Origin: Escherichia phage vB_EcoM_EC001
Strand: one strand, 5' to 3'
Sequence record: MN445185.1
DNA: 64,000 nt
Below, piece by piece: positions 7,474 to 29,004 of the stretch (position 1 is its first letter; each line of letters starts with the position of its first letter). The notes below the pieces were generated by a model that searched no databases, was not told where the DNA came from, and was given only the letters and a program-made list of their open reading frames with translations. A program made the translations under genes and the position numbers.

Positions 7474-9984
7474 ATGCTCAAGGTCGAACGTATCATTTTG
7501 AAAGGATTTACCGGCATGGGGTTACATGAAATCGAAACGTTTGATTTCACCCTCAAGTCCACCGTTACCATCATCCTCGGCGGTAACGGCTGCGGTAAAA
7601 CAAGCCTCCTATCTGTTTTTCTCCCCATAGCTCCAGCAAAATCTGAATTCCGTGAAGGTGGTTCTTACACTAACTACGCGTTAGTCGGGGACGACCGTCT
7701 TAAGTTTGAAGTCCTGCGTCGTGGGTCTTCTCTGTCTTGTAGTATCTTCAACATCACTAAAGGTGTTTCCGTCGTAGACTCGGTAAACGCCAAAGTTTAC
7801 AACTCCATGGTGGAGCAATTAACCGGAATCACCAAAGAAATCAAAGAGTTAATTAATGGTGAGACCTTATTAACTGACGCCACTACCGAAGTTCGTCGTA
7901 AATGGTTTACGTTAATGTCAGAATCTGATCTGACGTACGTTGTTGGTTGTTATCGTCGTCTGCGTAAACTCGCTTCCAGTTTAAGTGGGGCCATTGAGCA
8001 CACCGGCCGTAAAATCGGTGAGGCAAAAATGCGCGTGGTGGACGATGAAGAAGATCGTGCACGTTTGGAAGTTCGTTTGAAAGAACTGGACGTTGAGCTT
8101 CAGGAACTAAACCGCACCATTGAAGCGAGACCCGGTTTAGATAACGCCGTTTCGGTTGATAGTATCCGGAAACGCATTGCTTCGTTGCAACCGGCTGTAA
8201 AACTCATTATGGAGCGTTATGGTGTTCTGCCTTCTGACGAACTGATTAACGAGTTTCAAAGTCGTGTAGTTGCCTGGCGTGAGCAAGCTGCCTCTGCTGA
8301 AACTGAATGCAACATGTACAATAAAGAGTTGTCACAGCTACTGGATGAGGAGTCGCGTCAAGCGTATCTGATGCGCAACCATACCGGTCTAAAACAAACA
8401 ATCGACAGCTTAAAACAGGAACTGGCAACGTTCCAACAGAACTGGATGTTCCCGGCTCTGTTTGAAGGTACCCGCATCGATGTGGATAGCATTCAGAACG
8501 CGTTAAACGATGCCTGTAACTGGAATTTACCGTTGTCCATGCATCTGGACCAGTTAAAGACAACAGAGCGCCTGGGAGCGTTAGAGAAGCGTTTACAGGG
8601 TATGGATTTAACCTCTGCGGGTCTATCTGAAAAGCTGCAACGTTGTGAGAATGTGCTACACGGTTTATACCACGACCGTCAACACTTCTTAGAAACTGCA
8701 GAAGTTGATTGTCCACAGTGTAACCACCGTTTCCGTCCTGGGATTCGTAAGTCGTTACCTGAAATTGAAAAGGCCATCAACGATAATGAAGGTTGGAAGA
8801 AGCAGCTGAAAGACGAAATGGATAGTCTTTTGCGTGACCGCAAAGAGATTGAAGAGGACGTCCGTAGCTTACGTACGATTCGCGAAATCGTCATGTCGTA
8901 TTCCAATCATCCCGTTGTCGGTTTGTTTTTCCGTAAACTGCAGGAGCTGGATATCTTCACCACGGCGCGGGATCGTTACGGTGCCATTGCACGTGCCTTT
9001 ACTGAAGAGTTAGATTCGGCCATGATGTATCTGCGTCAATCGGCGAAGCTTGCAACAGCGGAACGGGAATGGCAAGAGGCTGTTGCCGCAGTAGGTAACG
9101 TTGATGGTGCGCTGAGCCAGAAAATTGAACATATCCGTTCACAACTGGATGGGGCTAACCGTCGACTGATAGAATACCGCAGACAAGCCAATGAGCTGGA
9201 ACGCGAAACCACCCAACTGCAACAAACCAAAGAAGCAATCGAACGTTTCCAAAAGGGCTACGAACATCTGGTATCGGAAATGAACATCTCCGTTAACAAC
9301 GTCGTGGTTCGCGAGTTGTTAAACCGACGCGAAGCGAAGCTCGATGCGTATACTTCCGCTCGTGAACGGTTTCGTCAAATGGAAGGGGCTATTGCACGTT
9401 TAGCGGAACTGGAAAAAGAGCAAGCTGAATTGCTTAAAGAGCATCACCATGCCAGATTGATTATCAATGCCGTCTCACCCGAAAAAGGATTATTGCGTCG
9501 TTACTTTTATGCTGCGATTACCCGCATCATGGATTTAATGAATCGGTATATCGAAATGGTGTGGGCATATCCGATGCAGGTTATTCCATGCGATCTAACC
9601 GACGGGGATTTGGATTATACTTTCCCGGTACGATTAAAAGACCATGAAGAACTGGTGCCGGATGTGAAGAAAGGTTCGAAGGCACAGCGTATTATCTTTA
9701 ACATGATGTTTCGTTTAACGGCGTATAAAGCGCTTGGTTTACAAAACTATCCTTTGTTATTGGATGAACCCTCTGAAGGCATGGATGAGGAACACAAAAA
9801 TCGACTGGTCAACTTCATTAAATCGTTGGCGTTGTCGGGAGAGTTTTCTCAATTGCTGGTCGTTTCGCATGAAGCGGAAGTTCATTCTAAACTTAACGAA
9901 GCCACCTACTGTGTCGTGGAGCCAGAAGGTGTAACGCTTCCACCGGTTTATAACGAAGGGGTAATAATCAAATATGCATCATAA
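7474..9984 (+). CDS. Rad50/SbcC-like SMC-family ATPase (836 aa)
   Basis: N-terminal Walker A GGNGCGKTS; long predicted coiled-coil; central CPQC (zinc-hook-like); C-terminal Walker B/D-loop LLLDEPSEGMD and VVSHE. Assigned by motif architecture only. Confidence 0.75.
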   Translation: MLKVERIILKGFTGMGLHEIETFDFTLKSTVTIILGGNGCGKTSLLSVFLPIAPAKSEFREGGSYTNYALVGDDRLKFEVLRRGSSLSCSIFNITKGVSVVDSVNAKVYNSMVEQLTGITKEIKELINGETLLTDATTEVRRKWFTLMSESDLTYVVGCYRRLRKLASSLSGAIEHTGRKIGEAKMRVVDDEEDRARLEVRLKELDVELQELNRTIEARPGLDNAVSVDSIRKRIASLQPAVKLIMERYGVLPSDELINEFQSRVVAWREQAASAETECNMYNKELSQLLDEESRQAYLMRNHTGLKQTIDSLKQELATFQQNWMFPALFEGTRIDVDSIQNALNDACNWNLPLSMHLDQLKTTERLGALEKRLQGMDLTSAGLSEKLQRCENVLHGLYHDRQHFLETAEVDCPQCNHRFRPGIRKSLPEIEKAINDNEGWKKQLKDEMDSLLRDRKEIEEDVRSLRTIREIVMSYSNHPVVGLFFRKLQELDIFTTARDRYGAIARAFTEELDSAMMYLRQSAKLATAEREWQEAVAAVGNVDGALSQKIEHIRSQLDGANRRLIEYRRQANELERETTQLQQTKEAIERFQKGYEHLVSEMNISVNNVVVRELLNRREAKLDAYTSARERFRQMEGAIARLAELEKEQAELLKEHHHARLIINAVSPEKGLLRRYFYAAITRIMDLMNRYIEMVWAYPMQVIPCDLTDGDLDYTFPVRLKDHEELVPDVKKGSKAQRIIFNMMFRLTAYKALGLQNYPLLLDEPSEGMDEEHKNRLVNFIKSLALSGEFSQLLVVSHEAEVHSKLNEATYCVVEPEGVTLPPVYNEGVIIKYAS

Positions 9985-12836: not shown

Positions 12837-13085
12837 ATGCAAAAAACAATCATCGGAATAACAGTTAGTTCTTTCTGTGGCTTCCCTACCCCACAAACAG
12901 AACCCCAATATTTAGGCGCAGGTAAACCCGATCCGGAAGTCCGTAAGTTGCGCGAAGAAGCAAAAGCCAGAGTTCTTACTGAGCTGGAATCGTTGCTTCA
13001 GTCTCCGGTTATTTCACAATGGGGTATGGCAATAGATGTCACTAGAACTGATCGACGAGGCCGTTATCTCCCACGACCTGTTTAA
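12837..13085 (+). CDS. hypothetical protein (82 aa)
   Basis: ATG immediately after upstream stop; AAAGGA SD; 3' end overlaps the macro-domain gene by 50 nt in another frame. Confidence 0.45.
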   Translation: MQKTIIGITVSSFCGFPTPQTEPQYLGAGKPDPEVRKLREEAKARVLTELESLLQSPVISQWGMAIDVTRTDRRGRYLPRPV

Positions 13086-13536
13086 CGCGCCTGAGCGCTT
13101 CAAGGTCGTTACAGTTAACTGTGTTGGTGCAATGGGAAGGGGCATTGCTTTGGCGTGCCGAGAACGCTTCCCATCGCTTTATAATGACTATCGCCAGAAA
13201 TGTCGTAAAGAGCAAATCGTTATCGGTGAGGTCTATTGTTATCCTGAGGAAGGGGTAATACTCCTTCCTACTAAAACCCATTTTCGCTATAAATCGCAGA
13301 TTTACTATGTCACGTCCGGCATTGATGCGCTGGCGCGACTAGGGGAAGACTTAGAAGGAGGGATTGCGATACCGCCCCTAGGGATGGCTAACGGTTGGTT
13401 ACGTTACCATGAGCGATTGGAAATCTTTATACACTTACAGAAACGACTACAGCACACGGAGCAGACTTATCGATTCTATTTACCGGACACATTGCTAAGG
13501 GAAGCAGAGAAAATCATCCCAAAAAGTTTCAAATAG
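13036..13536 (+). CDS. macro-domain protein, TARG1/DarG-like (166 aa)
   Basis: Motifs in order: HDLF…VNCVGAMGRGIALACRERFP, QIYYVTSG, GIAIPPLGMANGW, resembling the TARG1/OARD1/DarG macro subfamily as I recall it. Confidence 0.6.
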   Translation: MSLELIDEAVISHDLFNAPERFKVVTVNCVGAMGRGIALACRERFPSLYNDYRQKCRKEQIVIGEVYCYPEEGVILLPTKTHFRYKSQIYYVTSGIDALARLGEDLEGGIAIPPLGMANGWLRYHERLEIFIHLQKRLQHTEQTYRFYLPDTLLREAEKIIPKSFK

Positions 13537-18531: not shown

Positions 18532-18555
18532 AATTAAAAACTCTCCGAGGTGAGC

Positions 18556-19065
18556 ATGATAGCATCAGTTTTCAAACTGCTTCCATTCTTACAGATGCTG
18601 TGGGAAGCATTTAAACCGGGCGAGGGGGAGAAAGTAACACGAGCCGGGAAGATAGTGACACTAGTGATAGTGGCACTGGTCGCGTTCTCTGCATTTGTCT
18701 CATATGCCTATATTGTTCAATACCACACACTGGTTAGCGTCCAATCGCGTACTCAGTATCTGGAGATATCCTATAAGGAGCTAAAAGAGAAGTCCGATCA
18801 TGGCGAAGTGGAGAACAATAAGCTGTACGATCGTCTCTTCACATGCCTGGGTTCTCGATCGCCATATGATGGTACCAAATCTCCAACAGGGACAGGCACT
18901 GGGGCCGCGGTTCCGCCTGAAGAACTCAAGCCGGTAACACCACAGGCACCGTTAAATCCGTCTAGCCCGCCTGCCAAGAAACACCAGGCGGCTTCTCGCC
19001 CAGTGGGGTCGCAGGCGGCAAACGATTTCCGACAGGAGATTATCAAGACGCTTAATAATCCATGA
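18556..19065 (+). CDS. membrane-anchored protein, possible i-spanin-like (170 aa)
   Basis: Start moved to ATG 18556 (GAGGTG SD); one N-proximal TM helix, then charged/coiled segment and Pro-rich C-terminus. Confidence 0.55.
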   Translation: MIASVFKLLPFLQMLWEAFKPGEGEKVTRAGKIVTLVIVALVAFSAFVSYAYIVQYHTLVSVQSRTQYLEISYKELKEKSDHGEVENNKLYDRLFTCLGSRSPYDGTKSPTGTGTGAAVPPEELKPVTPQAPLNPSSPPAKKHQAASRPVGSQAANDFRQEIIKTLNNP

Positions 19066-19074
19066 GGAGCATAC

Positions 19075-19554
19075 ATGAAGTTATTTTTGGTGGCGATACT
19101 GGTGCTATTGTTGACAGGATGCCCTGGGGTCATCCGTCACGTAGACCCAGATTACTCCTCAACCGGAGATTGGCCTTTTCGTCCTTTAGAACACCCACCA
19201 GTATATAACGGTGGGAACAGTCCTGAGGCGAAAAAGCTGGCAGGGAAAATGTTTGTTGCGGATGTGAACGCTTATGCTTATTACGTTTATCTGTACGCTA
19301 AGTCAGTAAACAACTATGCAGAAGCTAAAGGGTGGCACACCCCGATGACCGCACCGCTTTGTGAAGAGTTTATTCGCCCCACTCTTCATGGTATACCCTC
19401 CGGGATATATCTCGACCCTGGTTCTCGTAGCCCTCAAGACATTAGTCGTGATTTGTCACGACAGATTAAGTCTCTCATTCGCAGCTATCGCGAAGACAGA
19501 GAGTCTTTTAATCGTGCCTACGAACGGCACAAAAGTAGTTGCCTTGTGCAATGA
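19075..19554 (+). CDS. putative lipoprotein, possible o-spanin-like (159 aa)
   Basis: Signal peptide with lipobox LLTGC; GAGGAG SD; terminator follows. Confidence 0.6.
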   Translation: MKLFLVAILVLLLTGCPGVIRHVDPDYSSTGDWPFRPLEHPPVYNGGNSPEAKKLAGKMFVADVNAYAYYVYLYAKSVNNYAEAKGWHTPMTAPLCEEFIRPTLHGIPSGIYLDPGSRSPQDISRDLSRQIKSLIRSYREDRESFNRAYERHKSSCLVQ

Positions 19555-19559
19555 AAACT

Positions 19560-19597
19560 CCCTCTTACCTTCGGGTAAGAGGGGATTTCCTTTTTTA
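19560..19597 (+). terminator. intrinsic terminator
   Basis: CCCTCTTACC-ttcg-GGTAAGAGGG then GATTTCCTTTTTTAC. Confidence 0.8.
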
Positions 19598-19642: not shown

Positions 19643-20362
19643 ATGACCTATCCTAAAATTCTGCCTGTTTTAACGCCCACCGTTGTTGTTGGGACGGACT
19701 TAGAGACCCTGGCTTTACGTCCAGATGCCTACATCTTAACGTTGGCAAACGTGGCATTCGATGTTCCGACAATGAAAATGATCGGTTCATGTTACCACAA
19801 AATCGACCCCAATGATGCAAAAGCAAAAGAAATCTTCTACATCGATCCACAAACGGTCGGTTATTGGGAAGGTAAAGGCGACCCCGAATACGCACCGAGC
19901 GAGAAAGCACGTATTGAAGCGTTTTCTGGGACCACACCACTGCCAGAAGCACTGTGGGCGGCCAAAAAATGGTTGGATGATCTGGGCAACGTGAAAATGG
20001 TTATCACCATGCGCGGTCCCGATTTCGATGCTCCAATTCTGATGAACGCATTTGCACAGTGCGATATCCCGCCGGGCAAGTACCGCAAGTTTTCTATTTT
20101 GGACTCTGACCGGACTGCAGAACGTATTGCATATGCGTTTGGCTTGGAACCTAACTGGCACGCAGAAGCCCACCACTGGACCCGTGGCAAAGAAGCGTAC
20201 GAGCATAACGCTAACTTTGATGCTGCGAAGGAAGCGTATTCTACGGCACGCATCTATCATTTGGCCCTGGTCGCGCGTACGTACGGCTTCGAACGCATGT
20301 TAGAAGCCCACCGCGAAATGTGCACAGGTGAATACATTCCACCGCAGTTGCGAGGAGAATAA
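19643..20362 (+). CDS. DEDDh-family 3'-5' exonuclease (239 aa)
   Basis: Exo I-like VVGTDLET (D-x-E), Exo II-like GPDFDAPILMNAF, Exo III-like HNANFDAAKEAY (H-x4-D). Confidence 0.65.
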   Translation: MTYPKILPVLTPTVVVGTDLETLALRPDAYILTLANVAFDVPTMKMIGSCYHKIDPNDAKAKEIFYIDPQTVGYWEGKGDPEYAPSEKARIEAFSGTTPLPEALWAAKKWLDDLGNVKMVITMRGPDFDAPILMNAFAQCDIPPGKYRKFSILDSDRTAERIAYAFGLEPNWHAEAHHWTRGKEAYEHNANFDAAKEAYSTARIYHLALVARTYGFERMLEAHREMCTGEYIPPQLRGE

Positions 20363-21876
20363 TGAAAGACGTCGACGTAGCGGTTATTTATACCGATGGT
20401 AGTCATACTGAGTCCCCGAAAGGTTCGGGGGCTGGTATTCATGGTTATTTATTCAACAACGGAGATTTGGAAGACAGTCAGGCTTATAGCCATCCGGGTG
20501 TTTCAGAACGGATTACCACTGTTGGATACAAAAAAGTGCCGCAGGATGTGAAGTGTCCGGAGTTGCCGGACACCGTTCAATTTGTCGACGCCGTTATTCC
20601 CGTTCCGAAAGAGTTCTACTCAGATGTGGGCGAGTTAATCGCCTTCATCACGTTGTTTGAGAACGCACCCTTCCGCGCGAAGAACTATATTATCTACGTG
20701 GATGCCAGTTATGTTGTAAACACTTTTAACGAGTGGATAGACGGCTGGCATAAACGTGGTTGGGTTCGTGCTGACGGTACTCCGCTGGCGAACAAAGAAC
20801 TTATTGTTCGTATCTGGGAAATCAAACAGCAGATGAAAAAAGAAGGACGGGGTGTTAAGGTTATCAAAATCAAAGGACACTCCGGCCACTACGGTAACGA
20901 CCGGGCGGACGAATTGGCTAGAAAAGGTTCAGCTATCACAGCGACCAACGACGGCGTTCCATATCAGCCGTACTGGTCGAAGGATGAGTTGCCTGCATCC
21001 GCGGAACCCGAGCCCATCGCCGCTGGGATGAACCTTGCGGCATATCCGCCGATTTGTACGGTTAAATATTGCTATCCGTTGGTGAACGAGGACCATCCTA
21101 CTGTAAAAGTGAAAGATGAAACTTTCTATTACATGTTTGGTGGCAACCATGCAAAGAACAAGGACGACTTGGTGTTTATTGGGAAAATGATTCCTGATGC
21201 ACACTTTTCCGTAATGTTCACTAAACAACCGTGGGATAACATCTACACGATTGTAAACAACCACGCCGCCCTGGCATGGAAAGATACACCGAAGATGCGG
21301 CAGTATGATCCAATCGGCGTTGTTAACAATGAGTTCGTTAAACGTAAGAAGTTCGTTGACGTGGCAGGTGATGGATTACCAGCAGACAAGATGCATTTCA
21401 GTGGAGAAGATTCCAACGTCTGGTTCTTTGAAGACCTGGCCATCTCCAGAATGCTTCGCCCACCCTTATTGTCGTACCGTGCGCTGGATATTCGTGACGA
21501 ACTCGCTACAACGTTGCGTGATGTTCTGCATCAGGAAAAGGGTTATGTCTTAAACGATATTACCGACTTGCTATTCGACGACAAAGGTAAACCTGTCAAG
21601 GAATACTACCGCAGCGTCGATAAGTCAATAACGTTAAAGATTGACTTTCCGATGGGTAAACGACCTGTCTCGGTTATTTTGACGCGTGGTATCGATATTC
21701 CATCGCGTACGGAAATCAACCGTATTAAAGAACCGGAAGGCCGTTATTACATCGCGGTGTGTCGTCCTGAAAAATACTACATCCGTTACTTCTTAATCTA
21801 TATCGGTAAAGAGTATCATGGGTTGTGGTGTGCGTATTACGCAAACCGTCGCATACTGCGAGAAGAAGAGGTGTAA
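20362..21876 (+). CDS. RNase H (type 1) domain fused to ~310-aa C-terminal domain of unknown function (504 aa)
   Basis: N-terminal ~190 aa align by eye to E. coli RNase HI catalytic motifs: VIYTDGS, ELIAF (Glu), IIYVDASYV (Asp), WHKRGW, KIKGHSGHYGNDRADELARKG. Confidence 0.85.
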   Translation: MKDVDVAVIYTDGSHTESPKGSGAGIHGYLFNNGDLEDSQAYSHPGVSERITTVGYKKVPQDVKCPELPDTVQFVDAVIPVPKEFYSDVGELIAFITLFENAPFRAKNYIIYVDASYVVNTFNEWIDGWHKRGWVRADGTPLANKELIVRIWEIKQQMKKEGRGVKVIKIKGHSGHYGNDRADELARKGSAITATNDGVPYQPYWSKDELPASAEPEPIAAGMNLAAYPPICTVKYCYPLVNEDHPTVKVKDETFYYMFGGNHAKNKDDLVFIGKMIPDAHFSVMFTKQPWDNIYTIVNNHAALAWKDTPKMRQYDPIGVVNNEFVKRKKFVDVAGDGLPADKMHFSGEDSNVWFFEDLAISRMLRPPLLSYRALDIRDELATTLRDVLHQEKGYVLNDITDLLFDDKGKPVKEYYRSVDKSITLKIDFPMGKRPVSVILTRGIDIPSRTEINRIKEPEGRYYIAVCRPEKYYIRYFLIYIGKEYHGLWCAYYANRRILREEEV

Positions 21877-21877
21877 C

Positions 21878-22618
21878 ATGTTGCGAGTCGTGAGTGAATC
21901 GCTCACGCTCCACACACAAAGTCTGATTAACTGTGTGGAGCAATACGGATGGATGTCATGGATGGCAACGAACCGTGAGTTCGGTGCTGCGCCCATGGAA
22001 GATTACGACGTGTTGTACAAGTGGGGATTTGAAGCGGCTTGTGATGTTGTGGCAGAGCTGGTTACTGAAACAATTGCGCGTTACAATGCAAGATGTGATG
22101 AACCGATGCCTAAACAAGTCCCGCCGCAAATACCTCCGCTACCGACAATCGATCGTGAGCAGTGTCGAATCTGGACAATGGAAGAGTTGTACGACGAACA
22201 CGTTAGAATGCTGAAACCGAACGAGCTAATAACCGGTGCGTTGAACTGGTTCTTACATCGTTTCTGGACAGAGTTGGTCGATGTGGCGGGTGACGAAGAT
22301 AATTGTTCTCAGGTTATTTGGTACGATCGAGCGATGTTTCATCGCAGTCTTAAAGATCGCAGTCTCTGCAACCTGTATATTGTTGACCCGTGTGAAGACA
22401 TTGTAAGGGTGGCAGAAGGTAACTCTTATTCGGACTTGGTGATGCCTGTGGTAGAAAAACCGATGGGTATTTTCCTGCAGGGAGACGCTTGGGTTTTAAC
22501 GGATGATATCTCGGGCTACCTGCTGGACCCGGATGACATTCACTCGGACGAACCTGACACCATCGAGTATTTTCACTTTACAGAACAGGCAGCACGCTTC
22601 TTGCATCTCTTAAAGTAA
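21878..22618 (+). CDS. hypothetical protein (246 aa)
   Basis: Start moved to ATG 21878 (GAGGTG SD, 1 nt after upstream stop). Confidence 0.6.
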   Translation: MLRVVSESLTLHTQSLINCVEQYGWMSWMATNREFGAAPMEDYDVLYKWGFEAACDVVAELVTETIARYNARCDEPMPKQVPPQIPPLPTIDREQCRIWTMEELYDEHVRMLKPNELITGALNWFLHRFWTELVDVAGDEDNCSQVIWYDRAMFHRSLKDRSLCNLYIVDPCEDIVRVAEGNSYSDLVMPVVEKPMGIFLQGDAWVLTDDISGYLLDPDDIHSDEPDTIEYFHFTEQAARFLHLLK

Positions 22619-25366: not shown

Positions 25367-26290
25367 ATGGACAGCTTTCTTTTTGATTTGGCAGAATCGG
25401 TAAATGTAGATGTAATCGGTATGCGCGAATCCCCGAGTAATTTCTTAAACGGTCTTACTAAAATCGACGAACGTGTGAAATCCAGAAGTGGAGATCCCGC
25501 CATCATCGAGCAATACGCAATAGCCCATTGTGGCGAGATAGGCCAGCACTTTATACCGATTGAGGCGTTCCTAAAGAACTGCTTCGCCGAAGAATGCACC
25601 GCAGACTTCCTGTCTCTTGCCTACGGCTGGCGATACGGGGGTATCCAAATGGAATTTGATCTTAATATTTTTGAACAAGTTCTACTTGGCGACGTTCTCA
25701 CTGAGATACCACGCAGCTGGATAGACAAGATTCCCGGTTGGGCCGTCTCCTTTTCAGTGTGCTATCGCGCTAAAGATATCGGTATCCAAGAAAAGACTTA
25801 CGTTTTCGGTCGGCGAATGTTTAAAGGGAAAGATTGTTTAACAATGATGATTTTTGGAAAACGTATCGAGGGGGAAACCTTTGAAATCGTGGACGTGGGT
25901 GACGGCTTTGTATCCTTGCGTGTGGCGGAAACTGGTACGCCGGCCAATGAGAAAACGTTACGCATTGTCGGCGCTACCATGTTTACATTCTCACTGATCC
26001 CGCACAACCCTACACCCGTCAAACTGAGACAATTAACTGGAAAGAAACGTATCGCCAATTACCACATTGAACCAAAATCTAAACCGACTGTCCTCTCCAC
26101 CGTAAAAGCACAAAGCGAGTATCTTGAAGAATTTGATACTGATACGGAGAAAAGAACACAAGGTAGCAGATGTGCGCATATGCGTCGTGCACACTGGTGT
26201 ACTTACTGGCTCGGTCCACGTGACGGGAATCGGACAAAGATTTTGAAATGGATACCGCCGACATTTGTCAACGGTTCTAAATGCAAATAA
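25367..26290 (+). CDS. hypothetical protein (307 aa), Cys/His-rich C-terminus
   Basis: AAAGGAG SD preceded by TTAATCGACCATTA motif; C-terminal RCAHMRRAHWC…SKCK could bind metal (speculative). Confidence 0.65.
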   Translation: MDSFLFDLAESVNVDVIGMRESPSNFLNGLTKIDERVKSRSGDPAIIEQYAIAHCGEIGQHFIPIEAFLKNCFAEECTADFLSLAYGWRYGGIQMEFDLNIFEQVLLGDVLTEIPRSWIDKIPGWAVSFSVCYRAKDIGIQEKTYVFGRRMFKGKDCLTMMIFGKRIEGETFEIVDVGDGFVSLRVAETGTPANEKTLRIVGATMFTFSLIPHNPTPVKLRQLTGKKRIANYHIEPKSKPTVLSTVKAQSEYLEEFDTDTEKRTQGSRCAHMRRAHWCTYWLGPRDGNRTKILKWIPPTFVNGSKCK

Positions 26291-27510: not shown

Positions 27511-29004
27511 ATGGCAGGTCCAGCTAAACAAGTCATGGGTGAAGTGATTCGCCCTCGTTTTAACGTATATACCATCATGGACCACGCTCTCGGTAACTAC
27601 GAGCGCGGGGAAGATGGTTTGTACTACCTCAACGGTGGTTTTGCCCACATCATGGGCTTCGCAGGTCGTGGGAACACCTTTAAGTCTACCTTATTAGACT
27701 TCTGCATTTTCATGATTCTGCAACGTTATAATGCGGCCTGGGGATCGAAATACGATACCGAAGTTACGGCAGCATTAAGTCGTCTGGAAACGGGGTATAT
27801 CTCCGCTGCGAAAGCAAACGGATTAGAAGTATCACCAACAGGCGGCGTGCTGGACCTGATCCACGAAGGTCGTTACAACATGGTTGGCTCGGATATCATG
27901 GCGGGTGAGGAGTATTACTCTGCTTATATCCGTGACGAAGTCGAAAAACGTTTCAAAGAGTACATGGCTGGTAAGGCACGCGAAACACCGTTCCCGGACC
28001 CAATCCGTCGCTCTGCGAAAAAGATTCTCGACCCGTGGTTGTACTCGATTGACTCCCTGTCCGAATGGCACACCTCTTCTCTGGAAGAGAAACATGCCAA
28101 ATCAGAAGTCGGTGATTCTGAACAGAACATCCTGAACGCCCACGATGCGTTGCAGAAATCGAACATGATGAGCCGTTGGCCGTCTGCGTTTGCGCGTGGT
28201 GGTTTCTATATGGGCTTCGTTGCTCAGTTGGCCGACGATGCGGGTAAAGCAATGGCGGCAGGTGGCCGTGGTGGACCGAAGGCGAACGGTAAACTGTTGG
28301 ACGATGCAGGCGATGATCTGAAGTTTGCGGGTATCCCGCGCCGTCAGTTGTCGTTCTTAACTAACTCCCTGCTGGTTGCAACCAAGTCTGGTGAGTTGAA
28401 GCAGGATCAGACTTACAACGCGAAGACCGGTGTAAACGAAGAGAAATACCCGACTGCGCGTTCGAAAGCAATGAATGCTTCGGTGAACGACCTGAAAGAA
28501 ATTGTTTTCACGCAGTACCGTGCGAAGGGTGGTCACACAGGCGTTAAGTTCAAAATGGTCTTCTCGCAGGAGATGGGTCTGCTTTATCACCTCTCTCTGT
28601 GGCATTACCTGAGCGACACACTGAAAGATGAATGGGGCTACAAACGTAGTGGTGCTAACTATACCCTCGATTTGCTACCTGGTACATCTTTCATGCGTAC
28701 CACGATTCGCGACATGTGTGACAGCAACCCGCGTTTGCGCCGTGCGTTGGAAATCACCGCCGCATTAGCGTACATGCAGAATAACTACCACCGACTGGAA
28801 ATGAAATACCATCTCTCACCGGCGGAGCTTTATAAAGTTATCGACGAAAAGTGGGACTGGAATGAAATTCTGGACAATACAGTGGAATACTGGATGTTCA
28901 AGGATCAGGAAGTCAAAGGTGGTAAGCGTTGCTTAACAGCAATGTCATTACTGGCGATGGCCGTGGATGGTCTGGAACCTAAGTTCTTGACTAAGAAGAA
29001 ATAA
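27511..29004 (+). CDS. UvsX/RecA-like recombinase (497 aa)
   Basis: …AHIMGFAGRGNTFKSTLLDF… parallels T4 UvsX degenerate P-loop (…ILAGPSKSFKSNFGL…) and downstream KYDTEV ~ UvsX FYDSEF; from memory of the UvsX sequence. Confidence 0.65.
   Translation: MAGPAKQVMGEVIRPRFNVYTIMDHALGNYERGEDGLYYLNGGFAHIMGFAGRGNTFKSTLLDFCIFMILQRYNAAWGSKYDTEVTAALSRLETGYISAAKANGLEVSPTGGVLDLIHEGRYNMVGSDIMAGEEYYSAYIRDEVEKRFKEYMAGKARETPFPDPIRRSAKKILDPWLYSIDSLSEWHTSSLEEKHAKSEVGDSEQNILNAHDALQKSNMMSRWPSAFARGGFYMGFVAQLADDAGKAMAAGGRGGPKANGKLLDDAGDDLKFAGIPRRQLSFLTNSLLVATKSGELKQDQTYNAKTGVNEEKYPTARSKAMNASVNDLKEIVFTQYRAKGGHTGVKFKMVFSQEMGLLYHLSLWHYLSDTLKDEWGYKRSGANYTLDLLPGTSFMRTTIRDMCDSNPRLRRALEITAALAYMQNNYHRLEMKYHLSPAELYKVIDEKWDWNEILDNTVEYWMFKDQEVKGGKRCLTAMSLLAMAVDGLEPKFLTKKK

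Follow-up and report, generated by a model that had tools for sequence, protein, structure and literature searches.

A putative DNA-clamp-like domain fused to ribonuclease HI in an SPN3US-like jumbo phage

The Gene Pair

Two overlapping genes on the plus strand of a 64,000-nucleotide stretch of Escherichia phage vB_EcoM_EC001 (sequence record MN445185.1; the whole stretch is referred to below as the window) are described here, the second of which encodes a ribonuclease HI (RNase HI) fused to a C-terminal domain. The new element of this analysis is the assignment of that hitherto unexplained C-terminal half, from a structural model, to a predicted DNA-clamp fold. The upstream gene (19643..20362) encodes a putative DEDDh exonuclease of 239 amino acids and corresponds to ACQ60_gp060 of phage SPN3US; the downstream gene (20362..21876) encodes the 504-amino-acid fusion protein and corresponds to SPN3US ACQ60_gp059. 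Both begin with ATG. At 20350-20369 (gcgaggagaa taatgaaaga) the TAA of the exonuclease gene (20360-20362) and the ATG of the RNase H gene (20362-20364) overlap by one base (TAATG), and a GGAG lies 5-8 nucleotides upstream of the ATG. An earlier note on this DNA had reported both open reading frames (ORFs) and the TAATG overlap, and its coordinates agree exactly with the ORF list and the sequence. The 4-kb region around both genes is 97.5-98.5% identical to Salmonella phages JN03, SPLA5c, SPN3US, and others, and the window is assigned by sequence similarity to an SPN3US-like Seoulvirus jumbo phage.

RNase HI Domain and Integrity of the Fusion

The RNase HI domain occupies residues 1-~195 (20362..20946, plus strand) and carries D12, E91, D114, H173, and D183. 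The RNase H core recognized in the earlier note is borne out: the protein scores 78.4 bits against Pfam PF00075 (RNase_H; cutoff 25.8; residues 89-190), and the domain aligns to the E. coli, Thermus, and human RNase H1 structures in the PDB at ~1e-12 to 1e-13. The five residues are invariant or nearly so in 41 homologues, and the catalytic residues are kept in 146-170 of 176 representatives, with alignment gaps accounting for the rest. The N-terminal domain is thereby predicted to be an active-type RNase HI. It has in common with cellular RNase HI (E. coli RnhA, human RNase H1) the DEDD + His site and the basic protrusion, but the phage protein adds an insertion of ~40 residues (32-72) between strands beta2 and beta3, as well as a C-terminal extension of 300 residues. 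The NCBIfam equivalog models give 70 bits vs. a cutoff of 160, and thus the 504-residue protein is not an equivalog of cellular RnhA.

The RNase HI domain is followed by a flexible, acidic, proline-rich linker (residues ~196-235; 20947..21066, plus strand), in which the predicted local distance difference test (pLDDT) falls below 50 at residues 209-217, and by a two-lobed alpha/beta domain (residues ~236-504; 21067..21873, plus strand) with a predicted DNA-clamp-like fold. The 504-residue ORF is 100% identical to a database cluster with 127 members, and an architecture of ~500-530 residues is kept in at least 45 clusters, down to 37% identity. The fusion is intact in 171 of 176 full-length representatives from very divergent phages, as well as in phiKZ itself. 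The earlier note had named a sequencing frameshift, by which two separate genes would appear as one long ORF, as the finding that could overturn the fusion; conservation of the single ORF across the 171 representatives and phiKZ excludes this artefact, to which we attach next to no credence. Its one point of support is that the gene is fragmented in some low-quality SPFM assemblies and in one metagenomic contig, but these broken copies sit in clusters that hold full-length members as well. In LR535903-LR535917 (SPFM5, 7, 8, 12, 14, 15, and 20), the exonuclease and RNase H match as four to seven pieces, which are annotated as several hypothetical proteins. This fragmentation probably reflects error-rich assembly, and it explains the odd database proteins P0035-P0037 and P0047.

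Relationship to phiKZ gp155

The earlier note had treated the extension as an unknown domain of ~310 residues. It proves instead to belong to a known gene family, annotated as 'ribonuclease H' in SPN3US and studied as phiKZ155 (Nlp2) in phage phiKZ; the 504-residue protein is almost certainly the Seoulvirus (SPN3US-clade) orthologue of phiKZ gp155/Nlp2. Residues 1-504 match positions 2-496 of the 496 in the phrog_3265 profile (E 1e-189), and by BLASTP residues 5-494 align collinearly with phiKZ gp155 (26% identity, E 8e-38), with D114 aligned to D102 of phiKZ155. Both phiKZ gp155 and phiPA3 gp176 have the same two-domain architecture, catalytic residues, and neighbourhood (UvsX-like recombinase, RNA polymerase beta subunit). 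In the window, a UvsX/RecA-like recombinase (27511..29004, plus strand) is in the orthologous position of phiKZ gp152/Nlp1, and the gene order RNase H, UvsX-like, RNA polymerase beta is common to phiKZ and the window/SPN3US. Set against phiKZ gp155, identity is only ~26%, and the Seoulvirus gene is preceded by a coupled DEDDh exonuclease gene that phiKZ lacks.

The search for homologues of the C-terminal domain that the earlier note had proposed was run with the C-terminal 300 residues alone, and returned 218 phage records by tblastn, including phiKZ (4e-7), Goslar, RAY, PCH45, and OBP. In nearly all of the records listed, the match falls within a gene annotated as ribonuclease H, and the rest are 'hypothetical protein' or unannotated. 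A profile of the domain retrieved 817 clusters at 50% identity, nearly all of ~440-560 residues and with the domain at the C-terminus.

phiKZ155 is a core-genome protein of the Chimalliviridae, the nucleus-forming jumbo phages. It is a genuine RNase H in vitro, and the activity is abolished by D102N; knockdown halts genome amplification and nucleus maturation, and the RNase-dead D102N protein still complements the knockdown (PMC12571901). The protein is imported into the phage nucleus via Imp1/PicA, as known for phiKZ and phiPA3 (PMC12571901; bioRxiv 10.1101/2024.03.27.586873), and specific Imp1 surface mutations block this import (bioRxiv 10.1101/2024.03.27.586873). phiKZ155-GFP is seen as one punctum at the nuclear periphery, near PicA (PMC12571901). 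By analogy, the published functions (RNase H activity, nuclear location, and nuclease-independent essentiality) probably transfer to the SPN3US-clade protein. The literature on the phiKZ155 family assigns no function to the C-terminal domain, to which a 2025 review (PMC12908238) adds nothing.

The C-terminal Domain

Conserved motifs of the C-terminal domain comprise GNHAKNKDD (261-269), KRKKF (327-331), RPPLLSYR (366-373), NDITDLLF (398-405), and RGIDIPSRTEINRIK (442-456). Conserved basic residues are placed at or beside helices (K265/K267, R328/K329, R366/R373/R378, and R449/R454), and three acidic residues (D279, D399, and D445) are invariant. Residues ~205-504 have no match in Pfam, NCBIfam, or PDB sequences, in line with the earlier remark that the extension holds no recognizable motif, and a profile search of PDB sequences with the C-terminal domain found nothing relevant. 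The invariant acidic residues might be taken to indicate a second catalytic domain, whether of a nuclease or of some other enzyme, but no catalytic family is matched in the three collections just named, the top structural matches (see below) include no enzyme fold, and the conserved residues are mostly basic or hydrophobic; we regard an enzymatic role as highly improbable.

Structure prediction and a Foldseek search of the domain were also proposed earlier, and in the search clamps rank at the top. The AlphaFold2 model of the full-length protein, built on a 41-sequence alignment, has a pLDDT of 88 and a predicted template modelling score (pTM) of 0.56, whereas the C-terminal domain modelled alone reaches a pLDDT of 86.8 and a pTM of 0.85; together with the disorder at 209-217 in the linker, this difference in pTM indicates two well-folded modules joined by a flexible tether. 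In the PDB, Foldseek places Haloferax volcanii PCNA at the top (E 1.3e-3) with a probability of 0.84, ahead of 9-1-1 subunits and further PCNAs. In BFVD, the protein's own family comes first, followed by two unnamed viral proteins of 233 and 247 residues, and then by viral beta clamps, PCNAs, and a herpesvirus replication accessory factor. Clamps rank first in three independent structure libraries, and because they make up a tiny fraction of those libraries, an all-clamp top list cannot be due to chance. As we read the AlphaFold2 model, residues 359-504 follow the order beta-alpha-beta-beta-beta-beta-alpha-beta-beta-beta, as in one clamp domain. The size of the C-terminal domain fits a two-domain clamp protomer (~230-270 residues). 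Its net charge is near neutral (median -2, vs. -6 for gp45 and -23 for PCNA). A genuine clamp-type fold is therefore, in our judgement, the probable reading of the model, with room left for doubt. We file the 504-residue protein only as fold-like, and not as a member of the clamp family; a literature search found no published link between this protein family and a clamp.

Occurrence of the C-terminal Domain Apart From RNase H

The sequences suggest that a functional RNase H is not required for the C-terminal domain to occur. A copy of 280 residues (P0175, locus L003), encoded on a viral contig and with no cultured relative, is the only one that appears to stand alone; other short copies that were considered (P0090, P0094, P0116, and P0125) are fragments or frameshifted rather than stand-alone. 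Among the 176 full-length representatives, the N-terminal domain is degenerate or replaced in five, including a recurrent fusion to a Macro domain. In five metagenomic proteins (P0071, P0061, P0081, P0106, and P0187), the C-terminal domain is retained but the RNase H signature is gone: the KGHSGxxGNxxAD segment is absent, and the final Asp and the His with it. Here the nuclease seems to have decayed and the C-terminal domain to have outlasted it.

Another metagenomic protein, P0068 (585 residues; 18 cluster members, on contigs of up to 134 kb), carries a Macro domain, then a degenerate RNase H-like stretch and the C-terminal domain of the family, and represents one uncultured lineage. This fusion may link ADP-ribose metabolism to an RNase H-family replication protein. 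The window itself encodes a separate Macro-domain protein (13036-13536) ~7 kb upstream of the RNase H gene.

A Possible Processivity or Tethering Function

A search of phiKZ-like genomes by Kazlauskas and Venclovas (2011; PMC3201878) turned up no clamp, a result that they termed 'puzzling' and an 'open question', and the absence of a processivity clamp in the large phiKZ-like phages has also been noted by Iyer et al. (2021; PMC7824862). A motif in the tail of the family-B DNA polymerase (PolB) was proposed earlier as a clamp-binding variant (PMC3201878). We find [TR][RK][LM][IVL]xD.[YH] at or near the C-terminus of the divergent family-B polymerases of nine chimallivirus clades; these include the SPLA5c DNA polymerase (L006:23771-25897), with the polymerases of the other clades in loci L007-L014. 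The motif stands at the extreme C-terminus in six of the nine clades (e.g., DRLISDFY in a phiKZ-like phage, IRLVSDYY, and TRLISDEH, each ending the protein). In the SPN3US-like, Vibrio pVp-JHP1101, and Moabite-like polymerases, it is followed by an acidic tail of 13-35 residues; the SPN3US-type polymerase has TRLLSDYY and then an acidic tail of 35 residues. The PolB C-terminal peptide contains DKNRTRLLSDYYG.

The mechanism that we propose is as follows. The RNase HI module would remove RNA from RNA:DNA hybrids (primers, R-loops), and the C-terminal ~270 residues would form a strongly diverged, clamp-like (PCNA/gp45/9-1-1-like) two-lobed module. This module would hold the divergent phage family-B polymerase on DNA, with the RNase H carried along covalently, and would act as an oligomeric ring or C-clamp or, alternatively, in the manner of UL42/UL44, with no need of a loader. 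Such a module would explain why the protein is essential for genome amplification without its nuclease activity, as well as why no separate clamp or clamp loader has been found in nucleus-forming jumbo phages. Loss of a processivity or tethering factor would leave DNA unreplicated and the nucleus immature. We infer the clamp function, oligomeric state, and polymerase binding of the domain. That the C-terminal domain serves as a processivity or DNA-tethering module of the replisome is a serious possibility, if somewhat short of an even chance; the more specific proposal, that it is the long-missing sliding clamp/processivity factor, diverged past sequence recognition, fused to RNase HI, and independent of a loader, is offered more tentatively.

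It is standard for a nuclease that removes primers to be tethered to a clamp, as for PCNA with RNase HII or FEN1, and a covalent RNase H-clamp fusion would, by analogy, be a simple variant of that arrangement. Sliding clamps (PCNA with RNase HII or FEN1, PDB 3p83; T4 gp45 with polymerase/ligase, PDB 6drt) are the best structural match, but here the nuclease is fused rather than recruited through a PCNA-interacting protein (PIP) box, sequence similarity is absent, and no clamp loader is known. A second comparison is offered by UL42, UL44, PF-8, and the African swine fever virus (ASFV) clamp, which share a clamp fold without a dedicated loader and are less acidic than PCNA; unlike the phage protein, they carry no fused nuclease and come from eukaryotic viruses, and the likeness is at the level of the fold only. 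The near-neutral charge of the C-terminal domain fits loader-independent DNA binding, in line with the electrostatic argument published for clamps that need no loader (PMC3201878).

Several observations count against a clamp function. The Foldseek TM-scores in the PDB are only 0.26-0.31 and the Z values are low too, so that any resemblance to clamps is distant, and the N-terminal lobe (residues 236-358) deviates from the canonical clamp order of secondary structure. Pfam searches of 16 members at E up to 10 gave noise only (Rotavirus_VP7, DUFs) and no clamp family. In hhalign, a 147-sequence alignment of the C-terminal domain gave 0.1% and 0.8% vs. gp45 (54 sequences) and PCNA (27 sequences), respectively; the positive control, gp45 vs. 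PCNA, reached only 1.1%, and thus these sequence tests have no power and are uninformative rather than negative. Self-comparison by hhalign found no internal repeats in the C-terminal domain; as it also found none in PCNA or gp45, it is equally uninformative. Between clades, the PolB tail motif varies at its aromatic positions. Strong purifying selection acts on the RNase H active site, an indication that nuclease activity matters too. Lastly, the peripheral punctum of phiKZ155-GFP is not obviously what is expected of a replisome clamp on replicating DNA.

The same punctum, together with the immature nucleus seen on knockdown (PMC12571901), would suit a nuclear protein scaffold that docks PicA/Imp1, the chimallin shell, or the genome-entry site, with the likeness to clamps being topological only. 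The weak structural scores are compatible with this reading, as is the Imp1/PicA dependence of phiKZ155 import and its block by Imp1 surface mutations (bioRxiv 10.1101/2024.03.27.586873). However, the other imported cargo, Nlp1, Nlp3, and Nlp4, are different proteins (gp152 resembles RecA, and gp104 and gp171 are distinct phage proteins; bioRxiv 10.1101/2024.03.27.586873), failed DNA replication would likewise be expected to leave the nucleus immature, and the structure libraries, three of them and independent, put clamps first. We consider a scaffold role doubtful.

A further alternative, somewhat less doubtful than the scaffold and still unlikely, is that the C-terminal domain targets the RNase H to RNA:DNA junctions, R-loops, or DNA ends, in the manner of 9-1-1 and not as a processivity factor; the essential role would then be one of sensing or licensing at replication initiation. 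The authors of the phiKZ155 study themselves suggested a role that is 'sensory rather than catalytic' (PMC12571901), the phiKZ-like phages have no primase, so that replication is possibly primed by transcripts (PMC7824862), and the conserved basic residues of the family are in keeping with targeting. On the other side, complementation by D102N indicates that the essential function needs no hybrid cleavage, and the stand-alone copy and the members with a degenerate RNase H argue for a role of the domain beyond guiding a nuclease. Of the two functions suggested for the extension in the earlier note, targeting thus fits the clamp-like fold and the nuclease-independent essentiality of phiKZ155 (PMC12571901), whereas nothing points to a second catalytic domain.

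A clamp-like C-terminal domain would link two published puzzles, namely the missing clamp and the indispensability of RNase-dead phiKZ155, and both become testable by truncation, point-mutant, and primer-extension experiments. If the proposed processivity function is true, this would be, to our knowledge, the first case of a clamp joined covalently to a nuclease that removes primers, and it would define a core component of the replisome operating within the phage nucleus. Nucleus-forming jumbo phages attract therapeutic interest, and their DNA is protected against clustered regularly interspaced short palindromic repeats (CRISPR) systems and restriction.

The Upstream DEDDh Exonuclease

The 239-residue product of the upstream gene scores 35.3 bits against Pfam PF16473 (Rv2179c-like; cutoff 27) and matches phrog_255 'exonuclease' at 8e-53, which sustains its earlier assignment as a DEDDh exonuclease. 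The DEDDh residues are D19/E21, D127 or D129, and H188/D193. The gene is predicted from its sequence to encode a DEDDh 3'-5' exonuclease of the Rv2179c-like/DnaQ-like family, and its likeness to that family (PF16473) consists of the above-cutoff Pfam score and these residues; there is no close solved homologue by sequence. Unlike the family at large, the gene is confined to the SPN3US/Erwinia clade and a few unrelated phages, which account for the only 80 phage records found by tblastn, vs. 218 for the C-terminal domain of its neighbour; within the clade, the RNase H gene always follows it directly. The organism/host tallies of the exonuclease search and the matches listed contain no phiKZ, Goslar, or RAY-like record, and phiKZ has no such gene beside gp155. 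This limited spread marks a clade-specific accessory gene and not one half of a conserved two-gene system, and the nucleic-acid-processing pair seen in the earlier note does not hold up as such a system. In the mechanism proposed above, the exonuclease would be an accessory nuclease peculiar to the clade, encoded in the same operon and coupled translationally, outside the core mechanism. The DEDDh type is presumably distinct from the PolB-type proofreading exonuclease that has been reported separately for phiKZ-like phages (PMC3201878), a distinction supported by the lack of matches in the phiKZ group.

Transcription Unit and Neighbouring Genes

A strong terminator-like hairpin (19559..19594, plus strand; 11-bp stem with 6 G-C, then a T-run) stands between the lipoprotein gene upstream and the exonuclease gene and signals where the transcription unit begins; it was scored on the minus strand too, and is possibly bidirectional. 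The hairpin is the sole item kept from a promoter and terminator scan, of which the sigma-70 promoter part was set aside as not meaningful because the phage uses its own RNA polymerases. The downstream gene (21878..22618, plus strand; 246 residues; phrog_9472), equivalent to SPN3US gp058, has its ATG at 21878, one base past the stop codon of the RNase H gene. Given the hairpin before the pair and the close abutment of this ATG, both genes open a tightly packed transcription unit. The longest ORF 3' of the RNase H gene begins at 21818, inside that gene, but the PHROG match of this ORF (21818-22618) begins at residue 21 and the RefSeq start is the ATG at 21878, so that the true start is most likely 21878.

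Upstream of the terminator, a 171-residue protein (18550-19065, plus strand; phrog_8719) has an N-terminal transmembrane segment and a proline-rich tail. The adjoining gene (19075-19554, plus strand; phrog_8165) encodes a 159-residue protein with a lipoprotein signal and lipobox (MKLFLVAILVLLLTGC). This layout resembles an i-spanin/o-spanin pair or another envelope-associated pair.

Elsewhere in the window, a 307-residue ORF (25367-26290, plus strand; phrog_6160) lies between the gp053 and gp052 equivalents and has no counterpart at the same site in the SPN3US reference annotation, where gp053 and gp052 are ~60 bp apart. It constitutes a strain-specific insertion or deletion of ~1 kb, and is possibly a mobile gene. 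An 836-residue ORF (7474-9984, plus strand) is the equivalent of the SPN3US 'putative SMC domain-containing protein', and may be the SbcC-like ATPase partner of an SbcD-like nuclease annotated elsewhere in the genome. Between 42000 and 52000, the GC skew becomes negative (to -0.195) and the GC content rises to ~0.50-0.53; these shifts coincide with a block that the SPN3US annotation shows as structural genes on the minus strand, the tail fiber among them.

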